Virus record (IMG/VR): IMGVR_UViG_3300020434_000055
Direction: 5' to 3' (one strand)
Origin: a virus
Lineage: Duplodnaviria > Caudoviricetes
DNA: 64,000 nucleotides
The notes under the pieces were generated by a model that was not told the origin of the DNA, searched no databases, and was given only the letters and a program-made list of their open reading frames with translations. This document shows positions 2,716 through 58,667 of this stretch, piece by piece. Position numbers and translations under genes: made by a program. The first letter of the stretch is position 1. Each line of letters opens with the position of its first letter.

Positions 2716-2909
2716 TGAAAAATTTTGAAAACATGGACGGCATGGAAGTACTTTGGTATCTTTTAACTAATTGGGAAGAAGGTAGAGGACTTTGGATGAT
2801 TATTGGATTCGGCTTGACAATCTTCGCAATCAGTCTTATAATAGATTATATGGACAAAAAGAACAATACAAAAAGCGATTGGCGAATCAAGTACGATGGC
2901 GAAATATAA
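2715..2909 (+). CDS. Small membrane protein
   Basis: One hydrophobic segment; translationally coupled to nrdB (TAATG). Confidence 0.6.
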   Translation: MKNFENMDGMEVLWYLLTNWEEGRGLWMIIGFGLTIFAISLIIDYMDKKNNTKSDWRIKYDGEI

Positions 2910-3312
2910 TTTACTATGTTCTCATGATCATCCTTTCGAAGGTTGGTTTGATTCCGAAAAAGCATATCTAGATCAAAAAAAGAGCAGATTATTAATTTGT
3001 CCAATGTGTGACGATCCTATAATACGGAGAGCAGTTATGTCTCCTAACCTAAAATCTAAAACAACTAAAAGAACAGTTAAAGAAAAAAGTAACAAAGTCT
3101 TTTTTAATAGTAGACAGGCTTTAAAAAATTTAAATAATTGGGTGTCACATAATTGTGAAAACGTAGGTACTAAATTTGCTAAAGAAGCCAGAAAAGCTCA
3201 CAAGGGAGAGAGAGACGATCACATATATGGTACAGCTACCGATAAGGAAATTGACAAACTTTATAAAGATGGCATACCTGCAATAAAAATTCCAAAGGTA
3301 AAGGATAATTAA
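2896..3312 (+). CDS. DUF1178 family protein (zinc-ribbon; alphaproteobacterial)
   Basis: KYNLLCSHDHPFEGWF...CPMCDD...RAVMSPNL and ENVGTKFAKEARKAH...IYGTAT match the DUF1178 pattern. Confidence 0.8.
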   Translation: MAKYNLLCSHDHPFEGWFDSEKAYLDQKKSRLLICPMCDDPIIRRAVMSPNLKSKTTKRTVKEKSNKVFFNSRQALKNLNNWVSHNCENVGTKFAKEARKAHKGERDDHIYGTATDKEIDKLYKDGIPAIKIPKVKDN

Positions 3313-3832: not shown

Positions 3833-4440
3833 TGAATAAAATAATAGCAACAGACTGTGACGGAGTTTTACTTCTCTGGGAAAAAGGTTTTGATGCCTGG
3901 ATGAAAGCAAATGACTTTAAAAAATGGGATAGTGGTCACTATAATATAGATATGAATTATCATCTACCACAAGGTTCTTCTTTACCTTTAATAAAAGTAT
4001 TTAATGAAAGTGCTTGGATGAGAGATTTAGAACCTGTTGAAGGTAGTGTTGAAATAGTAAAAAAATTATCAGAACAAGGATATAAATTTGATGTAATAAC
4101 ATCTCAAACTTTAGATACAAAAGCACAACAATTAAGACGAGAAAACTTAATAAATGTTTTTGGAGATGTGTTTAATGAAATTACATTTTTGGATATGGGA
4201 GCAGGAAAACGAGAAGTCCTGGATCAAAGAATGAAGCAAAAACAGTACAAGCCAGGAACATTTTGGATAGAAGATAAACCAAATAATGCCGAAGATGGGG
4301 CATCTTTGGATTTGAAGTCACTTCTGTTTGACTTACCACACAACAGATGGTATAATAGTAAAGTAACTCCGGTCCAACGAGTTAGTGGTTGGAGCGAGAT
4401 TTATAACGTTATAATTAAGGAGAATAAAAATCATGAGTGA
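3832..4440 (+). CDS. HAD-family 5'(3')-deoxyribonucleotidase-like protein
   Basis: HAD motif I ATDCDGVLL and motif IV WIEDKPNN. Confidence 0.8.
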   Translation: MNKIIATDCDGVLLLWEKGFDAWMKANDFKKWDSGHYNIDMNYHLPQGSSLPLIKVFNESAWMRDLEPVEGSVEIVKKLSEQGYKFDVITSQTLDTKAQQLRRENLINVFGDVFNEITFLDMGAGKREVLDQRMKQKQYKPGTFWIEDKPNNAEDGASLDLKSLLFDLPHNRWYNSKVTPVQRVSGWSEIYNVIIKENKNHE

Positions 4441-4612
4441 AACACACCAACAAATTACTCAAGCCGTTGAAGCTTACGTTAAAGAAAACGAAGCCTTCGA
4501 AACTAAAGGAATTAAAGCCGCGGCGGCTAGAGCCAGAAAGGCCCTGGGAAATTTGGGGAAACTTTCTAAAGCTCGTAGAAAAGAAATACAAGAAAAGAAA
4601 AATTCTATGTAA
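4433..4612 (+). CDS. Histone H1-like (Hc1-family) small basic DNA-binding protein; not in the ORF track
   Basis: AAGGAG SD upstream. Translates to MSETHQQITQAVEAYVKENEAFETKGIKAAAARARKALGNLGKLSKARRKEIQEKKNSM*; the G-x-KAAA-x-RARKA core is typical of the Hc1-like family. Confidence 0.8.
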   Translation: MSETHQQITQAVEAYVKENEAFETKGIKAAAARARKALGNLGKLSKARRKEIQEKKNSM

Positions 4613-4618
4613 TTCATC

Positions 4619-4665
4619 GTTGGCGCGGATCTAATCGATTATCCGTGCCAACAACACCCTTTTTC
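4619..4665 (+). terminator. Probable intrinsic terminator
   Basis: GTTGGCGCGGAT-loop-ATCCGTGCCAAC stem just after the Hc1-like stop; short T-run follows. Confidence 0.6.
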
Positions 4666-4735
4666 AGGAATCCACATAAATAATTCAAGTTACTAATAAT
4701 TAATATAGTAAATATAATAGAAGACAGAATAAAGT

Positions 4736-4948
4736 ATGGCAACAGGCAAAATCAAATGGTTTAATTCCGCTAAAGGTTTCGGATTCATCACACCAGATCA
4801 AGAAGGCAAAGACGTGTTTTTACACGTTTCTGCTTTAAAAGCCTCTAATTTAAGTGACGTTCATGACGGCGACTTAATGGAGTATGAGCTGGTAGAATTC
4901 CGAGGACGACAAGTAGCTGGAAATCTTAAACGCATTGTAGTAGAATAA
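4736..4948 (+). CDS. cspA: Cold-shock protein (CSD RNA chaperone)
   Basis: MATGKIKWFNSAKGFGFI (RNP1) and DVFLHVSAL (RNP2). Confidence 0.95.
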   Translation: MATGKIKWFNSAKGFGFITPDQEGKDVFLHVSALKASNLSDVHDGDLMEYELVEFRGRQVAGNLKRIVVE

Positions 4949-4993
4949 TCATCCCAACATAAAACAGCATATCAAACTGTACCATCGATGTCT

Positions 4994-5022
4994 TTGACAT
5001 ATCAATAAAAAGATGTTATAAA
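4994..5022 (+). promoter_or_regulatory. Sigma70-type promoter of tmRNA gene
   Basis: TTGACA(4994)-17 bp-TATAAA(5017) with TG extended -10. Confidence 0.85.
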
Positions 5023-5028
5023 TATTAC

Positions 5029-5360
5029 TGTAGACGTTGAAGTTTGGGTAATAAATTTCAGGGACGTCGGGGCAGTACCGACCACCTCCACCAAATTCTT
5101 CCGCGTGAAACATTTTAAGGTTTAAGTGTTTAACGGGGGTGAACTAGGATCGACCGGAATGTAAAGACAAATGGAGTCTATCTAGTAGGCACGAAGTAAC
5201 GTCCAATTTATAAATGCATTAGCATTTAAACCTGAAGTGACAGTTCCAGTTAGCATTTTTGCTGACAGAGAACTGGTTGCAGTTTAATACTGCCATTTCG
5301 GAGAAAGGTTAATCTCGGCAACAGAACATAGACCAGCATAGGGGCTTCGGCCCCTATGTT
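5029..5360 (+). ncRNA. ssrA: Circularly permuted (two-piece, alphaproteobacterial-type) tmRNA
   Basis: Acceptor piece ends with T-arm GTCGG-GGCAGTA-CCGAC plus CACCTCC-A-CCA(5093). Intervening segment 5094-5134. Coding piece starts GGGGGTGAACTAGGATCGAC(5135). The 7-bp acceptor stem has a G3.U70 Ala determinant. Resume context ATAAAT-GCA at 5216, tag ORF ends TAA 5287. Outer ends are approximate. Confidence 0.93.
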
Positions 5361-5362
5361 TA
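5336..5362 (+). terminator. Intrinsic terminator after tmRNA
   Basis: GCATAGGGGC-TTCG-GCCCCTATGT-TTATT, a C(UUCG)G tetraloop hairpin. Confidence 0.9.
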
Positions 5363-5427
5363 TTAAACATTCTTATAACTTCTCTTAACATTTAATTTCC
5401 GCTTTAACTTCTCTAAATAATATTCTT

Positions 5428-5688
5428 ATGTTGTATAGTAGAAGAAGAAAAAAGTTAATGAGCAAATTAAAAAAAAATGCTCCAAAAGTTCCAGATCTTA
5501 CTTGCCCAAGTATAGATAGTGCTATCGAACGACTTAAGAAAATATATGAAAAAAATAAACCAATTTCTGATTACCAATGGAAACTTATAGATAAAAGATT
5601 AGAAGTTCTTAGAGAACAAAATGAACTTCTTCGTGAAAGTGGCAAATATTGGTACGAATCCTGCAAAGAACACCTCAAAAAGTCATAA
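5428..5688 (+). CDS. Hypothetical phage protein (coiled coil)
   Basis: Open frame with VPDLTCPSID...LEVLREQNELLRESGKYWY; start codon uncertain. Confidence 0.6.
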   Translation: MLYSRRRKKLMSKLKKNAPKVPDLTCPSIDSAIERLKKIYEKNKPISDYQWKLIDKRLEVLREQNELLRESGKYWYESCKEHLKKS

Positions 5689-5763
5689 AAATCAACACTT
5701 TTTAACTATTGATTTATGTTTCAAAATCTGCTATTATAGTAGTATATAAATATAGTTAATATA

Positions 5764-6516
5764 ATGAAGAAACAAACCCGAGAACAACGGAAGACATCTG
5801 CATCTAAAAGAATAGTTCTTAAAAACCTAAAAAGATGGGCCAATTATTCCATCGCAGTAATAATATTAATAGCAATTTCTTTTTCATATGGAACATTCTT
5901 TCCTAACAAAGTTGTTTCAAACAAACTTTCGTCAACAATGTTTGAAAGCATAAAAAAACATTTTGCTAAAATCAATATTAAACTAGACAAAATAACTATG
6001 CAAAATAAAAAAGATATGGAAGTATCTTTATATTTGGATATTCACCAACCAGAATTTATATATAATGATGCTGATAGCTTCGTTGATGCAGTACGTCAAT
6101 GTGTAGATTATCTTAATTATACAACAGAACTTGAAAAAAGAATTCCTTCATCTATTATAATAGCAATGGCTGGAGTTGAATCAGGTTGGGGAACTTCTAG
6201 ATTTGCAATAGAAGGTAATGCATTATTTGGAGTACGAACTTGGGATCCAAACACACCACAAATGAAACCAAAAAATTTAGACAATATAGATTGGGGTGTT
6301 AAAAAATACAAGCATCAATGCGAAAGTATTCGTGATATGATAGAAATTATTAATAGACATCCTGCTTATAAAGCCTTTAGAGATGAAAGGGCAAAACAAT
6401 TAAAAAATGGTAAATGGGATTACAAAAAATTAATAGCAGGATTAAATGCATGGAGTGAAAATAAAGATTACGACCATCTAATATATAGTACTATATTAGA
6501 TAGAAACCTTCCATAG
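5764..6516 (+). CDS. Membrane-anchored GH73/Bax-like glucosaminidase (peptidoglycan hydrolase)
   Basis: N-terminal TM helix; IIIAMAGVESGWGTSRFAIEGNALFGVRTW catalytic motif. Confidence 0.85.
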   Translation: MKKQTREQRKTSASKRIVLKNLKRWANYSIAVIILIAISFSYGTFFPNKVVSNKLSSTMFESIKKHFAKINIKLDKITMQNKKDMEVSLYLDIHQPEFIYNDADSFVDAVRQCVDYLNYTTELEKRIPSSIIIAMAGVESGWGTSRFAIEGNALFGVRTWDPNTPQMKPKNLDNIDWGVKKYKHQCESIRDMIEIINRHPAYKAFRDERAKQLKNGKWDYKKLIAGLNAWSENKDYDHLIYSTILDRNLP

Positions 6517-12000: not shown

Positions 12001-12063
12001 TTGTACGTGATGCTATGATAGGTCTCGTACACATAACTTGCTTAACAAAGGAGGACGATTATG
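12001..12063 (+). promoter_or_regulatory. ROSE-like RNA thermometer in hsp20 5'UTR
   Basis: CTTGCTT-AACA-AAGGAG: the UUGCU motif pairs with SD AGGA leaving a bulged G. Upstream hairpin GTACG...CGTAC (12003-12030). Confidence 0.7.
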
Positions 12064-12507
12064 ACAAATAAAGCCCTATCAATTTTTAATCAACTAAGAC
12101 CCGTTACAATTGGATTTGATAACGTATTCGATCATTTTGAAAGAATGATGGAAGGCGATAACTTTTTCAATGGTGCTGGTGTTAATTACCCACCTTACAA
12201 TATTGTGAAAACAGGTGAAAACACTCACGATATTGAAGTTGCTCTTGCTGGATTCAGTAAGAAAGATATTGATGTAGAGTATAAAGACAATATGCTTACA
12301 ATCAAATCTATCAAAGAATCCAATACTGGCAATCAAAAGGATGGAGTTGTGCATAGAGGAATATCACAAAGATATTTTTCTAAATCTTTTACAATTGCGG
12401 ATGACGTAGAAATAAAAGGTGCAGAACTTAAAGATGGTCTTTTGACAGTTTCTTTGGAAAGAATAATTCCGGAAAGTAAAAAGGCTAAAAAAATAGACAT
12501 TAAGTAA
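12061..12507 (+). CDS. ibpA: Small heat-shock protein Hsp20/IbpA
   Basis: YPPYNIVK, IEVALAGFSKKDI, HRGISQRYFSKSFTIADD, AELKDGLLTVSLERIIPE. Confidence 0.96.
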   Translation: MTNKALSIFNQLRPVTIGFDNVFDHFERMMEGDNFFNGAGVNYPPYNIVKTGENTHDIEVALAGFSKKDIDVEYKDNMLTIKSIKESNTGNQKDGVVHRGISQRYFSKSFTIADDVEIKGAELKDGLLTVSLERIIPESKKAKKIDIK

Positions 12508-12518
12508 TATTAATGGAG

Positions 12519-12554
12519 ATAGGTGGGGGCGTTTTTTAATACGCCCTAACCTAT
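12519..12554 (+). terminator. Hairpin between hsp20 and clpS
   Basis: ATAGGT.GGGCGT-loop-ACGCCC.ACCTAT; overlaps a TATAAATA late promoter at 12552. Confidence 0.5.
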
Positions 12555-12565
12555 AAATACTTAAA

Positions 12566-12871
12566 ATGAGCACAGAAATAGAAGTTAAAATAGACGAAAA
12601 AATAAAACAAGTAATTAAAGAACCTGAAAATTACAAGGTTATCTTTTTGAACGATAACGTTACCCCAATGGAATTTGTAATAGATATTTTAATCAAAATA
12701 TTTAAACACACCGCAGAAACGGCTCGTGATCTTACTCTGAAAATCCATAAAGAAGGCTCTATAATTGTTGGACTTTATACATACGAAATAGCAGAACAAA
12801 AAGGTATGGAGGCAACTAACGAAAGTAGGAGTTTAGGATATCCACTTCAGGTTAAGATTGAAAAAGAGTGA
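12566..12871 (+). CDS. clpS: ClpS N-degron adaptor
   Basis: YKVIFLNDNVTPMEFVIDIL...LTLKIHKEGSIIVGLYTYEIAEQK...GYPLQVKIE. Confidence 0.93.
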   Translation: MSTEIEVKIDEKIKQVIKEPENYKVIFLNDNVTPMEFVIDILIKIFKHTAETARDLTLKIHKEGSIIVGLYTYEIAEQKGMEATNESRSLGYPLQVKIEKE

Positions 12872-13491
12872 GCAAATTAAAAGAATTAACGTGGGAACAC
12901 CATAAAAACGCAGAGCGACATGAATTCGCCAAACTTCTAATGAGTGGCAAAATGCCAGAGAAGTTATATGCTACATATCTTTATAATCAACACCCTTGCT
13001 ATGTTATAGTTGAAGCAGTTGGAATGGCATATGGTTTAATGGATGGGGGCTTAAGACGAGCACCTGCAATATGGGACGACTTTAAAGAATTATGGCCAAA
13101 CGTTCCAGATGACGATACTAAAGATTATGAAAAACCATTTATAGCACCTTGCGTAAAAGAATTCCTTGATCATATTCAAAAAATAAAAAGTGATAGAAAA
13201 AAAGTAATGGCCCACATTTATGTTCGTCATATGGCAGATTTAAGTGGAGGTCAAATGATTAGAAAACGTATACCTGGTAAAGGACGTTTATATGATTTTC
13301 CTAAACCAATTGACGAAATGAAAGCTGATGTAAGAAAAAATTTAAGTGATGATATGGCAGATGAGGCAATAATAGCTTTTGGCTTTGCCACTAAATTATT
13401 CAAAGAATTAAGTACACAAATTTATAATGAAGATAATAGAAATACTACAAATGATCCTTTTAAAGGAACAGTTATAGAAGGAAAAGATTAA
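12868..13491 (+). CDS. ho1: Heme oxygenase
   Basis: LKELTWEHHKNAE (proximal His helix); AHIYVRHMADLSGGQMIRK distal helix. Confidence 0.9.
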   Translation: MSKLKELTWEHHKNAERHEFAKLLMSGKMPEKLYATYLYNQHPCYVIVEAVGMAYGLMDGGLRRAPAIWDDFKELWPNVPDDDTKDYEKPFIAPCVKEFLDHIQKIKSDRKKVMAHIYVRHMADLSGGQMIRKRIPGKGRLYDFPKPIDEMKADVRKNLSDDMADEAIIAFGFATKLFKELSTQIYNEDNRNTTNDPFKGTVIEGKD

Positions 13492-13697
13492 TGACATCTT
13501 TATCTAAAATAAGACATAGACAAAAGTTTGAAGAAGCACCCAAAAATGATTTTACTGGAAATATGATAAGGGTTAATATTCTTAAAGAAGAAATAGCACA
13601 TCTTAAAACATTACTTCAACCAACGGACACTGGACATATTCATACTGCAATATCTGTCTTGGAAGACCGAATAAAAGAATTAGAAAATGAAAAATGA
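13491..13697 (+). CDS. Small hypothetical protein within the HO-FDBR cassette
   Basis: Coupled at both ends; LQPTDTGHIHTAISVLEDRIKEL. Confidence 0.65.
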   Translation: MTSLSKIRHRQKFEEAPKNDFTGNMIRVNILKEEIAHLKTLLQPTDTGHIHTAISVLEDRIKELENEK

Positions 13698-14394
13698 GTC
13701 TTTTATTTGGAATAAACTTATAGAGTGTCAAAATCAAATACTAAAAGAGTTTAATACTAGAGGTACAGAAATAACTGAACCTGGTATGGATCATTTTAAC
13801 CAACCTGAAAATGGTTGGATGAATAGAGTATGGCAAACTGAAAATTGTAGACGTTGTCATATAGATGTAGTAGATGCTAGAGATACAAAAGCTCTTTGGA
13901 TGATGCACGTATGTGTTTTTCCTAATCTTGATAATGATGGTCCTATATATGGCTTTGATGTTATTGCAGGTAAAAATAAAATGACTGGAGCCTTCCATGA
14001 TTTTTCAGCATCTTCTGGAGGAGAAAAACATCCTTTAGTAGACTGGTATAAAGATGCAGTAGCAGATTATATACCTAGCAAAAAAAGAGTATTACCTGAA
14101 TGGGCAAAAAATATATTTTCAAGTAGTATGATTGCCGCGGGTAATGTTAGAACAGATGAAGAAGCAACTGCAATAGTTGATTTAGCAATTAGCAATCTTA
14201 AAACTTATTTTGACAGTATAGGACAATACTCAGGTAAAGCACTTAAAGAAAATACAATAAAAGCACAAAATTACTATTGTAATAATCAAACACAAAATCC
14301 ACATACACCCAGAGTAATGTTGTCTTTAGGACTAAACGAAAAAGACGTTAAAAAGTTTTGTACAGACATATTATTTCCTAAAATAAGCCAATAA
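13687..14394 (+). CDS. pcyX: Ferredoxin-dependent bilin reductase, PcyX/PcyA-like
   Basis: CHIDVVDAR, WMMHVCVFP, PIYGFDVIAG, AFHDFS and YYCNNQTQNPHTPRVM match FDBR family motifs; next to heme oxygenase. Confidence 0.82.
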   Translation: MKNESFIWNKLIECQNQILKEFNTRGTEITEPGMDHFNQPENGWMNRVWQTENCRRCHIDVVDARDTKALWMMHVCVFPNLDNDGPIYGFDVIAGKNKMTGAFHDFSASSGGEKHPLVDWYKDAVADYIPSKKRVLPEWAKNIFSSSMIAAGNVRTDEEATAIVDLAISNLKTYFDSIGQYSGKALKENTIKAQNYYCNNQTQNPHTPRVMLSLGLNEKDVKKFCTDILFPKISQ

Positions 14395-49047: not shown

Positions 49048-50397
49048 ATGTGCGGAATAGTTGGAATATATAATGTTCCAGAGGCTTCTAAAATTGCAGT
49101 ACTCGGAATTCATGCTTTGCAACACCGAGGTCAAGAAGGAGCTGGTATTATTTCATACGATAATGACTTTCATTTTCAAAATTCTTACGGTTTAGTTGAT
49201 CATATTTTTAGTAAAAACAGAATTATAGAAAATCTACCAGGTAATATGGCAATAGGCCACGTTAGATACAGTACTACTGGTGGTACAGGTAAAAATAATG
49301 TTCAACCTTTATTTTATAATTTAGACTTTGGTGGTTTTGCTATTTCTCATAACGGAGATTTTACTGATTCAGTATATTGGCGAGACAAATTAAGAAAAGA
49401 TGGTGCAATATTTCAAACATCTACCGATACAGAAATTATTCCACATTTATTGGCCCGTACAAAAGGAACAGATCCTATTAATCGTTTACTTAAGGTATTA
49501 AATCAAGTAAATGGTGCATTTAGTATAGTGGCTTTGCTTAATAACAAGTTAATTGTTGCACGAGATACTCATGGCTTTCGTCCATTAGTTATAGGTCGTT
49601 ATAAACAAGGTTATGCAGTAGCATCTGAGAGCTGTTCTCTTGATTTAATTGGTGCAACAAATATTAAAGACGTTGACCCCGGAGAAGTACTTGTATTTGA
49701 AGATGAAAAAAAGAAAATTTATCATTTAGACAATAAAATTACAAAAAATTTTTGTATATTTGAACACGTATATTTTTCTAGACCTGATTCTATTATAGAT
49801 GACCAATTAGTATATGACGTTCGTAAAAGAATAGGTGAACAATTAGCAAAAGAAACTTATATTGATTCTGATATGGTTGTTCCTGTACCTGATTCAGGTT
49901 TAATATCTGCACTTGGATATGCTAAACAATCAAAAATTCCTTTTGAATTTGGACTTACGCGAAGTCACTACGTAGGAAGAACATTTATTCAACCCACTCA
50001 AACAATACGAGACTTAGGTGTAAAATTAAAACATAGTGCTATGCGATTATTTGAAGATAAAACAGTTACCGTTATTGATGATTCTATTGTTCGAGGAACT
50101 ACAGCAAAAAAAATTATAAAAATGATAAGAAAAGCAGGTGCTAAAAAAATTCATATGCGTATTGCATCTCCACCGGTTACTGGTCCATGTTGGTATGGTA
50201 TAGATACACCAAATAGACAAGAACTTATAGCTGGAACCAGTAGTGAAAAAGAAATTAAAGAATTTATAACGGCTGATTCACTAAAATACATATCAGTAGA
50301 AGGATTACATAAAGCAGTAAAAGGTAAAGGTTACTGTGATGCTTGTTTTAGTGGCAAATATCCTATTAATAAAAGGACTGAATTACATGAACGTTAA
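49048..50397 (+). CDS. purF: Amidophosphoribosyltransferase
   Basis: MCGIVG Ntn Cys, LQHRGQEGAGI, GHVRYST, CIFEHVYFSRPDS, PVPDSG, VIDDSIVRGTT, YCDACFSGKYP. Confidence 0.97.
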   Translation: MCGIVGIYNVPEASKIAVLGIHALQHRGQEGAGIISYDNDFHFQNSYGLVDHIFSKNRIIENLPGNMAIGHVRYSTTGGTGKNNVQPLFYNLDFGGFAISHNGDFTDSVYWRDKLRKDGAIFQTSTDTEIIPHLLARTKGTDPINRLLKVLNQVNGAFSIVALLNNKLIVARDTHGFRPLVIGRYKQGYAVASESCSLDLIGATNIKDVDPGEVLVFEDEKKKIYHLDNKITKNFCIFEHVYFSRPDSIIDDQLVYDVRKRIGEQLAKETYIDSDMVVPVPDSGLISALGYAKQSKIPFEFGLTRSHYVGRTFIQPTQTIRDLGVKLKHSAMRLFEDKTVTVIDDSIVRGTTAKKIIKMIRKAGAKKIHMRIASPPVTGPCWYGIDTPNRQELIAGTSSEKEIKEFITADSLKYISVEGLHKAVKGKGYCDACFSGKYPINKRTELHER

Positions 50398-55036: not shown

Positions 55037-55065
55037 TTGACTTTTTGGTAAAGAGTTGTTATATT
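55037..55065 (+). promoter_or_regulatory. Sigma70-type promoter of dnaJ-def-clpA operon
   Basis: TTGACT-17 bp-TATATT with TG extension. Confidence 0.75.
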
Positions 55066-55071
55066 ATTATT

Positions 55072-55923
55072 ATGGCAGACTATTATGATATATTAGGGGT
55101 TAAAAAAGGCGCTTCCCAACAAGATTTAAAAAAAGCATATAAAAAACAAGCGATGAGATATCATCCAGACAAGGGTGGAGACTCTAATAAATTTCAAAAA
55201 ATAAACGAAGCATACGATACACTTAAAGACCCTCAAAAGAAAGCCATGTATGACCAATTTGGTGCTACTGGTAATCAAGGACCTTATTCAAGAACATATT
55301 CAACTGAAGAGTTTGAATTTCCTAATGACATAGGAGATATTTTTAATCAATTCTTTGGTGGATCAAGATCACCGTTTACTCAAAGAAGACAAAGACAAAG
55401 AAATAAAGACATAGCAATTCAAACTCAAATAGATTTAGAAGATGTAATGAATGGTAAATCATTAATTGCAACATATACACTAACAAATGGTAAGCAACAG
55501 AGTGTAAACATTGATTTACCTCCGGGAGTAGAAACAAATACCACGATGAAATTTACAGGACTAGGAGATAATTTCATTCCAAGTATTTCTAGAGGTGATT
55601 TAATGGTAAGAATTAAAGTACGATCTCATTCAAGATGGCATAGAGATGGTGCAAATTTACATTGCGTAGAAAAAGTAAGTGTGTTTGATTTATTATTAGG
55701 AACTAAAAAGGAAATAACAACTGTAGATGGTAAAAAATTATCTATTACCATCCCTAAAGGATGTCAACCAGGTACAGTATTAAGTATTAGTGAACAAGGA
55801 CTACCAAGATTGCATGGCAGAGGCAAAGGTAACATCTATATGACAGTTCAAGCCGATATACCTAACATATCTGATCCAGAAATGTTAAAGCTTCTTCAAA
55901 GGATAAAATATGGAACTAATTAA
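55072..55923 (+). CDS. dnaJ: DnaJ-class II co-chaperone (CbpA-like, no Zn finger)
   Basis: DYYDILGV...YHPDKGG J-domain; G/F region; C-terminal domain with GDLMVRI and GLPRL..RGKGN. Confidence 0.93.
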   Translation: MADYYDILGVKKGASQQDLKKAYKKQAMRYHPDKGGDSNKFQKINEAYDTLKDPQKKAMYDQFGATGNQGPYSRTYSTEEFEFPNDIGDIFNQFFGGSRSPFTQRRQRQRNKDIAIQTQIDLEDVMNGKSLIATYTLTNGKQQSVNIDLPPGVETNTTMKFTGLGDNFIPSISRGDLMVRIKVRSHSRWHRDGANLHCVEKVSVFDLLLGTKKEITTVDGKKLSITIPKGCQPGTVLSISEQGLPRLHGRGKGNIYMTVQADIPNISDPEMLKLLQRIKYGTN

Positions 55924-56428
55924 ACACCCAAATGAATGGTTAGAGAAAAAAATAAAACCTTTCGACTGGGAAAATTTAGATTCAGAAAAAATTGAACAAG
56001 AAATGGTCTCTATTATGGAGGATAATAAAGGTATAGGTCTGGCGGCAAATCAAGTTGGGTTAGATGCAAGAGTTGTAACAATATTGCCAAAAAATATAAA
56101 AGGAATTACTAAATCTTTTGCAATTATTGATCCTACAATAGAACAAATAAGTCTTAATAAAATTGAAGATGTTGAAGGATGTCTTAGTTTTCCAAAATTA
56201 TGGTTAAAAGTTAGAAGACCAGACAAGGTTACTGTAAAATTTCTTGACAGTAAACAAAAAGAGTGTATAATGGACTTTAGTGGTTATGATGCAAGATGTT
56301 TTCTTCACGAATATGATCATCTGGAAGGAATAACGTTCGTGAGTCCTTTACGAGTTAGCAAATTAAGATTAGATATGGCAATAAAAAGACAACAAAAAAT
56401 AATAAAAGAGGAACAACAAAATGGTTGA
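55910..56428 (+). CDS. def: Peptide deformylase
   Basis: GIGLAANQVG, EGCLSFP, HEYDHLEG. Confidence 0.96.
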   Translation: MELIKHPNEWLEKKIKPFDWENLDSEKIEQEMVSIMEDNKGIGLAANQVGLDARVVTILPKNIKGITKSFAIIDPTIEQISLNKIEDVEGCLSFPKLWLKVRRPDKVTVKFLDSKQKECIMDFSGYDARCFLHEYDHLEGITFVSPLRVSKLRLDMAIKRQQKIIKEEQQNG

Positions 56429-58667
56429 GCCTAGCCAAGAACTCCAATTAGTTTTTGATAAAGCAGTTATAGATGCTAAAAAATTAAAGCATGAATATGT
56501 AACTGTTGAACACTTATTATTTGCAATGCTATGCACTGATAAATTTTCAAATATGATTAAAGGATTCGGTGCAGATGTTGACGATTTAAAAACAGAAGTA
56601 GAAAATTATCTTAAAACTAAATTAAAAACTATAACACTTGAAAATATTTCAAAATATAAACCAAAAAAGACAACAAGTGTAGAAAGAATTCTAAATAGAG
56701 CATTTACCCAAGTATTATTCAGTGGTAGAAGCCATATAGACATCTCAGACGTGTTTCTTAGCATGATGAGTGAAAAGAAAAGCTGGGCTTATTACTTTAT
56801 AATGAAGACCGAAATAAGCAAAGACAAGTTTCAAGACTATCTACACGCCGAAATGGAATCATTATATGAAGATGAAGTTGATCAATCCGCGGCAAAAAGA
56901 GCATTAGGTCTTTATACTACAAATTTAAACAATGAAGTTAAAAAAGAAAGAATAGATCCAGTTATAGGAAGAGTAGAAGAATTAAATTCTATAGCTTTAT
57001 CCTTAGGTAGAAGAACTAAAAATAATGTAATCCTAGTAGGAGATCCAGGTGTAGGAAAAACTGCTATTGCAGAAGGATTAGCATTTAATATTGAAAAGAA
57101 TACTTGTCCTGATTTTTTAAAAGAATATAAAGTGTATAATTTAGACATTGGTGGAATGTTAGCTGGTTCTAAATATAGAGGAGATTTTGAAGAAAGATTT
57201 AAACTTGTATTATCTGCTTTAAAAAAGAAAGGCAAAACAATTTGTTTTATAGATGAAGCACATAATATAAGTGGTGCAGGAGCAGGCGGAACTACAAATA
57301 GTAATGATTTAGCTAATTTATTAAAACCTGTATTAACTAAAGGTGATCTTAAAGTTGTAGCATCAACTACTTGGGAAGATTATAGAAAATATTTTGAAAA
57401 AGACAGAGCTCTAATGAGAAGATTTCAAAGAATTGTAATTGATGAACCAGATAAAGATACTACAGTTAAAATATTACACGGACTTAGAAAATACTATGAA
57501 AATTTTCATAATATTGCAATTACAGATCAAGCAATTAAAGAAGCAGTTAAAACTAGTGTCAAATATCAAACTGATAAAAAATTACCTGACAAAGCAATTG
57601 ATTTAATAGACTTGGCGTGTAGTAGATTTAATCTTAAAGACCCTACTGCTGAAAAAGTAATAGGTCAAGAAGAAATACAATATGAAGTAGCAAAAGCTGT
57701 GAAAATGCCTGTTGAAAACATTCAACAAAAAGAGTCTTCAGCACTTGCTAATTTAGATAAGAATATGAAGAGTGGTGTATTTGGACAAGACAAAGCAATA
57801 GAGTCTGTTATTGATAAAATTATGGTGGCACACGCAGGATTAAAAAGAGAAAACAAACCAATAGGATCATTTGTGTTCATGGGCCCAACAGGTTGTGGTA
57901 AAACAGAAACAGCAAAACAACTTGCAAATCATTTAGGTGTTAAATTAGTCAGATTTGATATGTCAGAGTATCAAGAAAAACACGCAGTATCAAAACTAAT
58001 TGGATCTCCTCCAGGATATGTTGGATTTGAAGAAAATACAGGATTGCTTATAACAAAATTACAAGAACATCCTAATTGCGTATTGCTATTAGATGAAATA
58101 GAAAAAGCACACCCTGATGTTAGTCAAATATTACTTCAAATAATGGATGAAGGAACTGTTATGGGTAATAATGGTAAAGAAGCAGACTGTAAAAATGTTA
58201 CATTAATTTTAACTACTAATTTAGGTGCAGATCAATTAGATAAAAACGTAATGGGATTCACTGACTCCTCATCTACTAGTGAATATGACGATAAAGAAAT
58301 GAAAAAGTTCTTTCCACCAGAATTTAGAAACAGATTAGACGGAACTATTGTATTCCAAAAATTATCAAAAGAAACTCTAATAAAAATTGTTGGTAAGTTT
58401 ATGCTAGAGCTTAGATTGATGTTAAAAGACAAAGATACAGTACTAGAATTAACTGATGAAGCTATTGACTACCTAGTAGACAAAGGATATGATGATAAAA
58501 TGGGTGCTAGACCTATGCAAAGACTAATTGACAATGACATTAAAAGACCTCTATCCAAAGAATTGCTATTTGGTAAGTTAAAAAATGGTGGTAAAGCTAA
58601 AATTGACTCAAAAGATAAGGGTATTACTATCATCTACGAAGAAGCAGTGAAACTAATCAAAAGTTAA
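56421..58667 (+). CDS. clpA: ClpA AAA+ unfoldase
   Basis: Clp N-domain (HEYVTVEHLLFAM), two NBDs (GDPGVGKT, GPTGCGKT), no ClpB coiled coil, KNVMGF ClpP-docking loop, MGARPMQR. Confidence 0.95.
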   Translation: MVEPSQELQLVFDKAVIDAKKLKHEYVTVEHLLFAMLCTDKFSNMIKGFGADVDDLKTEVENYLKTKLKTITLENISKYKPKKTTSVERILNRAFTQVLFSGRSHIDISDVFLSMMSEKKSWAYYFIMKTEISKDKFQDYLHAEMESLYEDEVDQSAAKRALGLYTTNLNNEVKKERIDPVIGRVEELNSIALSLGRRTKNNVILVGDPGVGKTAIAEGLAFNIEKNTCPDFLKEYKVYNLDIGGMLAGSKYRGDFEERFKLVLSALKKKGKTICFIDEAHNISGAGAGGTTNSNDLANLLKPVLTKGDLKVVASTTWEDYRKYFEKDRALMRRFQRIVIDEPDKDTTVKILHGLRKYYENFHNIAITDQAIKEAVKTSVKYQTDKKLPDKAIDLIDLACSRFNLKDPTAEKVIGQEEIQYEVAKAVKMPVENIQQKESSALANLDKNMKSGVFGQDKAIESVIDKIMVAHAGLKRENKPIGSFVFMGPTGCGKTETAKQLANHLGVKLVRFDMSEYQEKHAVSKLIGSPPGYVGFEENTGLLITKLQEHPNCVLLLDEIEKAHPDVSQILLQIMDEGTVMGNNGKEADCKNVTLILTTNLGADQLDKNVMGFTDSSSTSEYDDKEMKKFFPPEFRNRLDGTIVFQKLSKETLIKIVGKFMLELRLMLKDKDTVLELTDEAIDYLVDKGYDDKMGARPMQRLIDNDIKRPLSKELLFGKLKNGGKAKIDSKDKGITIIYEEAVKLIKS

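Follow-up and report, generated by a model that had tools for sequence, protein, structure and literature searches.

The locus at 5030–5364 (+) of the window, the 64-kb stretch of viral DNA analysed here, raises the question of whether a phage carries a working gene for a circularly permuted tmRNA, and what such an RNA might do during infection. We consider it very probable that the phage has here a working ssrA gene that encodes a two-piece tmRNA, and the basis for this is its anatomy, its conservation, the covariation of its helices, the peptide-level constraint on its tag and its presence in RNA libraries. What we infer is how the RNA is processed and charged, that host SmpB is used, when the gene is expressed and what becomes of tagged proteins.

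The window is about 32% G+C, is coded almost wholly on the plus strand, and includes genes for ribonucleotide reductase subunits, an ATP-dependent DNA ligase and a baseplate-wedge/tail-fibre connector protein; one further window protein is common to cyanomyophages at about 30% identity. Judged by this gene content, the source is a large marine myophage. A blastn search with the gene and 20 kb of the window found no match in 50,697 deposited phage genomes, and metagenomes are thus the only source from which the lineage is known. CheckV analysis of five relatives (G001–G005; L162, L122, L127, L121 and L125) places a 148-kb contig at 41% completeness, indicating genomes of roughly 300 kb or more, and contigs of 29–39 kb at 9–12%. 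The L122 record is labelled a provirus by IMG/VR, perhaps wrongly.

Directly upstream of the tmRNA gene (4433–4948, +) are genes for a histone H1-like Hc1 protein (59 aa; PF07432, E 1e-11) and a cold-shock protein (CspA, 70 aa; PF00313), and downstream are an 86-aa ORF and then an endolysin-like glucosaminidase. Elsewhere in the window there are genes for Hsp20 (12061–12507, +), heme oxygenase (12868–13491, +) and a ferredoxin-dependent bilin reductase (13687–14394, +), and this segment (12061–14394) is a pigment cassette in a phage that is otherwise not cyanobacterial-looking. Two other auxiliary genes of bacterial type encode a DUF1178 protein (2896–3312, +; E 3e-38) and a purF-like amidophosphoribosyltransferase (49048–50397, +).

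Layout and detection of the gene

The window sequence, Rfam and ARAGORN with the -ps option together define a complete two-piece gene. The acceptor piece, of about 64 nt (5030–5093), was placed from Rfam alignments and RNAalifold pairs, and carries the 5′ strands of P2c, P2b and P2a, followed by a T-arm at 5066–5082 (T-stem 5066–5070/5078–5082, with the 7-nt loop GGCAGUA at 5071–5077), the acceptor 3′ strand CACCUCC (5083–5089), the discriminator A5090 (A73), and an encoded CCA at 5091–5093. An intervening spacer of 41 nt (5094–5134) containing an 8-bp hairpin predicted by RNAfold (5108–5115/5124–5131) lies between this half and the coding piece of about 225–230 nt (5135–5364; Rfam, ARAGORN -ps, RNAalifold and pair counts), which begins with the acceptor 5′ strand GGGGGUG (5135–5141). 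Because this 5′ half, starting at 5135, is located downstream of the acceptor half, ending at 5093, the gene is permuted. All seven positions of 5135–5141 pair with 5083–5089, including G5137.U5087, which corresponds to G3.U70, the alanine determinant. A preliminary description of the locus had claimed this order of the halves, the fully paired acceptor stem with G3.U70 and the 41-nt spacer with its hairpin, and in each of these respects it agrees with what we find.

Beyond the acceptor strand, the coding piece contains the 3′ strands of P2a, P2b and P2c (to 5181) and a PK1 region (5182–5204). The tag reading frame of 23 codons (5216–5287; ARAGORN -ps) is opened by the alanine resume codon GCA (5216–5218) and closed by UAA (5285–5287), and this stop codon sits in the loop of a P5 hairpin, GCAG/CUGC (5279–5293), located from the alignment of relatives. 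An H-type, PK2-like pseudoknot lies downstream of the tag (5301–5334; S1 5301–5303/5314–5316, S2 approximately 5307–5312/5329–5334), with a connecting loop that holds GGCAACAGAA and is invariant across the aligned relatives. The gene ends in a terminator-like hairpin (5337–5364) with a 9-bp stem (5337–5345/5350–5358) and a UUCG loop, followed by UUUAUU.

When the whole 64 kb was searched with Rfam at gathering thresholds, two overlapping plus-strand tmRNA matches were obtained and no other. The tmRNA_permuted model (RF04321; gathering score 47 bits) matches at 74 bits over 5031–5287 (+) through its full length (1–213). The alpha_tmRNA model (RF01849; gathering score 50 bits), which had been proposed as a check, scores 81.1 bits (E 2e-20) over 5043–5171 (+), with an alignment confined to model positions 69–184 of 355, so that the match is to part of the alpha subtype rather than to its whole length. 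ARAGORN, also proposed as a check, gave a divided answer: at default settings no tmRNA is called in the window, but with the relaxed threshold (-ps) it reports a permuted tmRNA, flagged as low-scoring, with the tag ALAFKPEVTVPVSIFADRELVAV*, the resume codon GCA at 5216 and the stop at 5285–5287. The proposal that such a gene escapes common searches is thus partly right, as default ARAGORN finds nothing, but both Rfam models detect the gene at their gathering thresholds. The same holds for annotation of such genes generally, which default ARAGORN misses and RF04321 and RF01849 catch. Taken with the covariation in 42 homologues described below and with the phage genes found around the locus in the window, the covariance models and ARAGORN -ps uphold the central claim of the preliminary description, that this is a circularly permuted two-piece tmRNA gene in a phage.

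Conservation of the RNA and its tag

A pattern for the alpha-type tRNA-like domain is matched by at least 120 IMG/VR contigs, and the tags among the matches listed are mostly short and canonical, ANDN...ALAA. We aligned 42 distinct genes and folded the alignment with RNAalifold, which recovers P2c, P2b, P2a, the T-stem, the acceptor stem, one pseudoknot stem and the terminator hairpin, with compensatory (both-side) changes at 28 of the 57 predicted base pairs. These changes are spread over P2a, P2b, the T-arm, the pseudoknot and the terminator (columns 385–394/400–409 for the terminator stem), and P2c also covaries. Pair counts in the 42 genes illustrate the exchanges, with CG in 29 and GC in 13 for one T-stem pair, UA in 21 and AU in 18 for one P2a pair, and GC in 21, AU in 17 and CG in 4 for another. 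The acceptor stem is invariant at all seven pairs in 42/42, including the U.G pair.

In the downstream pseudoknot, our own counts find the S1 pairs 5301–5316 and 5302–5315 to be paired in all 42 genes, with G-C/C-G and A-U/G-C exchanges, and each S2 pair shows 7–15 double-sided changes (columns 352–356/373–377). The P5 stem is GCAG/CUGC in the window and GCCG/CGGC in relatives, an A-U to C-G exchange that was seen by eye in the alignment; its outer pairs are paired in 38/42 and the innermost in 42/42. For PK1, a second stem is unsupported, a 2-bp candidate being paired in only 7–12 of the 42 sequences. Among the pseudoknots flanking the tag, the downstream one is therefore supported, and the PK1 hairpin is partly supported.

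The 336-nt gene is 99.7% identical to that of five close relatives, compared with 79–89% for the flanking genes of the same relatives, and the sole difference between the window and these five is at 5103, inside the spacer. RNAfold predicts a stem-loop for almost every one of the 23 distinct spacer variants folded, and in the 19 variants from the tag clade the hairpin is positioned 0–6 nt before G1 despite differing sequence. This predicted hairpin fits a role in processing or in precursor folding.

The window tag, ALAFKPEVTVPVSIFADRELVAV, is 23 aa long and belongs to a family that we recovered from 59 IMG/VR viral contigs using a degenerate pattern for tag codons 3–11. Most numerous is ANAFKPEVTVPVSIFADAELVAA with 29 members, followed by ANAFKPEVTVPMSVFADQELVAA with 8, ALAFKPEVTVPVSIFADRELVAV itself with 8 (the window and 7 contigs), ANAFKPEVTVPVSVFADAELVAA with 7, and three variants beginning AK with 7 members. 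The exact start of the window tag is present in 7 IMG/VR contigs from 7 metagenomes. Leaving aside the codons that the search pattern fixes, nine vary synonymously and five non-synonymously (tag positions 2, 12, 14, 18 and 23, with conservative changes at 12, 14 and 23), and this mostly synonymous variation indicates that the reading frame is constrained as a peptide.

A typical tmRNA tag begins with AN- and has a hydrophobic -(L/V)AA degron at its end, features that are typical but not strictly defining. The window and its 7 relatives depart from this, reading AL...LVAV, whereas the remaining 51 members of the clade start with AN or AK and end in -LVAA. The window sub-lineage thus has L for N at tag position 2 and a -VAV end for the usual -AA, which makes recognition by a ClpX-type protease uncertain.

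Two groups of sequences lie close to this family. A sister clade (L038, L051, L074 and L088) consists of two-piece phage tmRNAs with a different tag of 22–25 aa (ANxKALGFADLTVGMSxLRLAA and a longer variant), the same promoter layout and the invariant GGCAACAGAA loop. The locus L136:3707-4087 (-) matches the tag-codon pattern, reading RSAFKPEVTVPALPMLSF..., in a setting that lacks tmRNA context; it was kept out of the alignment owing to its unrelated reading RSAFKPEVTVPALP..., and may be protein-coding or a rearranged copy.

We searched for bacterial counterparts of both parts of the RNA. Matches to a pattern for the T-loop and acceptor strand are mostly in Pelagibacteraceae, and among the bacteria sampled the best blastn matches are SAR11 tmRNAs, at 85–89% identity over about 46–49 nt of the acceptor piece. 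The tag-encoding pattern has no match in one genome per species across 185,579 bacterial and archaeal species, and we therefore reject the idea that the tag was recently captured from a host. By these sequence comparisons the tRNA-like domain is SAR11-like, and phages are the only place where the mRNA-like part has been found. The RNA had been described as being of the alphaproteobacterial type, which holds for the tRNA-like domain only, since our bacterial searches found neither the tag nor the 3′ pseudoknot domain.

Some members of the tag clade carry a canonical GGGUUCGACUCCC T-arm, and its occurrence inside the same tag clade suggests that the tRNA-like domain may be exchanged as a module among phage tmRNAs. 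The members with a canonical T-arm, GAGGG UUCGACU CCCUC (L129, L131, L128, L130, L168, L172 and others), also differ in the spacer, and others have the alpha-type GUCGG GGCAGUA CCGAC (alignment columns 88–108).

Expression signals and RNA libraries

The gene is preceded by a promoter at 4994–5024 (+), with a -35 TTGACA (4994–4999), a 17-nt spacer and a -10 TATAAA (5017–5022); this and the UUCG hairpin are at the places where the gene had been said to have its own promoter and terminator. The TTGAC of the -35 is invariant in 42/42 genes and a TAAATA block is conserved. A simple promoter/terminator scanner listed neither signal, because it demands T at -10 position 6 and probably extends the terminator stem into the T run; we checked both signals by visual inspection and against the relatives, where they are conserved. 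Pairing in P2c begins at G5030, 8 nt past the -10, such that the primary 5′ end would be nearly the same as the mature end.

Sequences of the form TTGACA-N16-18-TAWAAW occur at six sites in the window by pattern count (2814, 4994, 10845, 22265, 46561 and 56244), all on the plus strand, compared with 0.92 expected. These are likely to be phage promoters of the host sigma-70 type, and their excess suggests that the phage uses such promoters. The -10 of the tmRNA promoter also overlaps a T4-late-like TATAAATA box (5017–5024, +). This sequence is strongly depleted in the window, with three occurrences (5017, 5745 and 12552, all +) compared with 15.6 expected, and they are located just upstream of the tmRNA gene, the endolysin-like ORF at 5764 and an ORF at 12566; on this pattern, TATAAATA looks like a T4-type late promoter box. 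The earlier suggestion that the gene is expressed early is supported insofar as a sigma-70-type promoter with an invariant TTGAC is present, but early-only expression cannot be concluded because the -10 doubles as TATAAATA.

This exact gene is present in DNA or RNA runs from 16 studies, and in six metatranscriptomes from six studies 53–63% of its sampled words are present. Contigs from four marine metatranscriptome runs (X15, X16, X17 and X19) were placed on the interval 4700–5800. Those of X16 (5031–5181 and 5206–5356), X17 (5148–5366) and X19 (5144–5342) lie within 5031–5366, and the flanks are bare over 4700–5800 except for the end of an X19 contig at 5769–5800. The X15 contig (4735–5314), which comes from a related strain, is continuous from the csp gene into the tmRNA. 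With X17 and X19, it is the coding piece alone that is covered. These placements are consistent with a small, abundant RNA running from near 5030 to near 5360, although contigs cannot define or prove RNA ends. As the spacer is spanned by two contigs, that of X15 and the first of X16, precursor RNA or contaminating DNA is also present.

Function and relation to known systems

If the gene functions as we propose, a single transcript would start at about 5030 from the sigma-70-type promoter, end at about 5360 at the UUCG hairpin, and fold so that CACCUCC pairs with GGGGGUG. The 41-nt spacer would be removed by tRNA-processing enzymes, with RNase P cutting 5′ of G5135 and 3′ trimming to the encoded CCA, giving two pieces, acceptor and coding, of about 64 and about 225 nt, joined via the acceptor stem and P2a–c. 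Host AlaRS would charge the RNA via G3.U70 and A73, host SmpB and EF-Tu would bring it to stalled ribosomes, and translation would resume at GCA 5216, such that ALAFKPEVTVPVSIFADRELVAV is added to the unfinished protein after the tmRNA-borne alanine. A likely benefit to the phage would be that ribosome recycling is maintained during infection while mRNAs are cut; a second likely benefit would be the marking of truncated products, probably for Clp-type proteolysis.

The use of host SmpB is presumed. SmpB (PF01668) is absent from the records of five relatives, and a tblastn search of the window and of 177 viral loci with a Pelagibacter SmpB as query returned only noise, so that function would depend on compatibility with the SmpB of the host.

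A more elaborate proposal concerns what happens to the tagged products. The long, phage-only tag could be part of a phage-run and partly orthogonal route of tagging and disposal, in which it is read by a phage ClpA-like unfoldase docking on host ClpP, and within such a route the products of the -VAV sub-lineage might be spared from host ClpXP; we regard this as unlikely, if conceivable. It draws on the lack of the tag pattern in 185,579 species and the 9-aa tags of the nearest bacterial tmRNAs, those of SAR11, on peptide-level constraint over the whole tag length, and on the gene content of the window. Genes for DnaJ (292 aa; 55045–55923, +), peptide deformylase (172 aa; 55910–56428, +) and a ClpA-like two-AAA ATPase (748 aa; 56421–58667, +) stand in a row (55045–58667, +), and the last of these proteins combines a Clp_N domain with two AAA modules and carries MGF at 611–613, which we take to be the place of the ClpP-docking loop of ClpA. 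The 148-kb contig (G001, L299), a member of the same tag clade, encodes a 74% identical ClpA-like homologue, and three phage genomes that are complete or nearly so and have short canonical tags lack the gene, a co-occurrence that sets two related genomes against three and is therefore confounded by lineage. Against the proposal, most clade members end in -LVAA, a canonical-looking ClpX/ClpA degron end, and neither ClpP nor ClpS was seen in the window. That the 23-aa tag and the unfoldase would make up one phage-run pathway, with DnaJ, Hsp20 and peptide deformylase in the same toolkit, is a suggestion from gene content that we likewise hold to be rather improbable.

Much less probable still is that the RNA serves mainly as a decoy, binding up SmpB or AlaRS of the host so that trans-translation there is shut down, with tagging being irrelevant. 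This role has been proposed for a mycobacteriophage DS6A molecule with a tRNA-like domain only (PMC4131195, PMC11915505), a similar molecule inhibits tmRNA in E. coli (PMC4131195; PMC11915505), and no phage SmpB was found in our searches. Nonetheless, variation in the present tag is mostly synonymous, and the tag frame, the resume context, the P5 stop-codon hairpin and the downstream pseudoknot are all conserved, features that would not be maintained in a pure decoy. That the gene is passively carried host DNA, an ssrA copy or attachment-site remnant that is decaying or neutral, is scarcely credible, for even though ssrA is a frequent integration site of prophages and its fragments are found in them (PMC9004378), one relative is recorded as a provirus and ARAGORN scores the gene low, it is complete, its helices covary, it is constrained far above its neighbours, its tag was not found in bacterial genomes, and its synteny is conserved in a T4-like genome of lytic type.

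Two-piece ssrA genes in marine myophages are already known (PMC9004378), and the window gene, read as a functional tmRNA gene, is a further case of this kind. Buchholz et al. (2022) described a two-piece SAR11-like ssrA in Melnitz, a myophage of OM43 (Methylophilales), found a permuted tmRNA in 17 of 47 Melnitz-like contigs, and reported 53 two-piece genes among 133 unique tmRNA structures from 402 phage genomes, nearly all marine (PMC9004378). A tmRNA database of 2025 contains 79 phage sequences and was the source of RF04321 (PMC11915505). Like the window, Melnitz and pelagimyophage-like contigs combine a permuted tmRNA in marine T4-like myophages with an alphaproteobacterial, SAR11-like tRNA-like domain; in both Melnitz and the window the gene is directly downstream of an early-type promoter, and in both the host lineage of the RNA is deduced from RNA similarity (PMC9004378). 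They differ in that the Melnitz ssrA has a glutamine riboswitch (glnA-type) in its 3′ domain (PMC9004378), whereas none was listed for the window gene in a permissive Rfam scan of 4600–5800 with E up to 10. The neighbours also differ, being thyX, a transcription coactivator and curli genes in Melnitz, compared with the Hc1-like and CspA genes, the 86-aa ORF and the endolysin-like gene in the window, and the window lineage has the 23-aa tag and, as suggested by CheckV of its relatives, a much larger genome.

The alphaproteobacterial two-piece tmRNA, for which Keiler, Shapiro and Williams (2000) are cited in PMC9004378, has in Pelagibacteraceae the same order of acceptor piece, spacer and coding piece as the window gene, and shares with it the GGCNGUA T-loop, GGGGGUG/CACCUCC with G3.U70, and the UAGGAUCGAC D-analogue. 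The SAR11 tags are 9 aa long (ANESYALAA, ANQKFALAA), in contrast to 23 aa in the window, and the 3′ pseudoknot with its GGCAACAGAA loop was, like the tag, not found in bacteria by the searches run. The tmRNAs of mycobacteriophages (Bxz1 group) and Bacillus phage G resemble the window gene in being phage-borne, with no reported phage smpB and presumed reliance on host factors, but are one-piece and non-permuted, with hosts and tags of other lineages (PMC4131195). In the literature on phage and viral tmRNA that we searched (the Melnitz study and its preprint, a tmRNA-SmpB survey and one mycobacteriophage gene screen), the only functional result found concerns the molecule with a tRNA-like domain only, like that of phage DS6A (PMC4131195, PMC11915505). 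Particular to the window lineage are the 23-aa tag, seen only in phages, the -LVAV end of the sub-lineage, the negative SmpB searches, and the presence of ClpA-like, DnaJ and deformylase genes in one phage with the tmRNA; the long tag and its possible coupling to these proteostasis genes are the chief points of interest.

Phage tmRNAs have thus been catalogued, but their function has hardly been studied. Were the tag read by a phage unfoldase, the products of stalled ribosomes during infection would receive a mark recognized by phage machinery, instead of or besides host ClpXP/SspB, and the -LVAV sub-lineage would then represent a variant in which protease specificity has changed. With 59 IMG/VR contigs, very strong constraint, presence in RNA libraries, and a long tag not found in sampled bacteria, this lineage is well suited to functional study, and would allow tests of how a virus profits from bringing a ribosome-rescue RNA of its own, and of whether tagged proteins are redirected to protease machinery that belongs to the phage.
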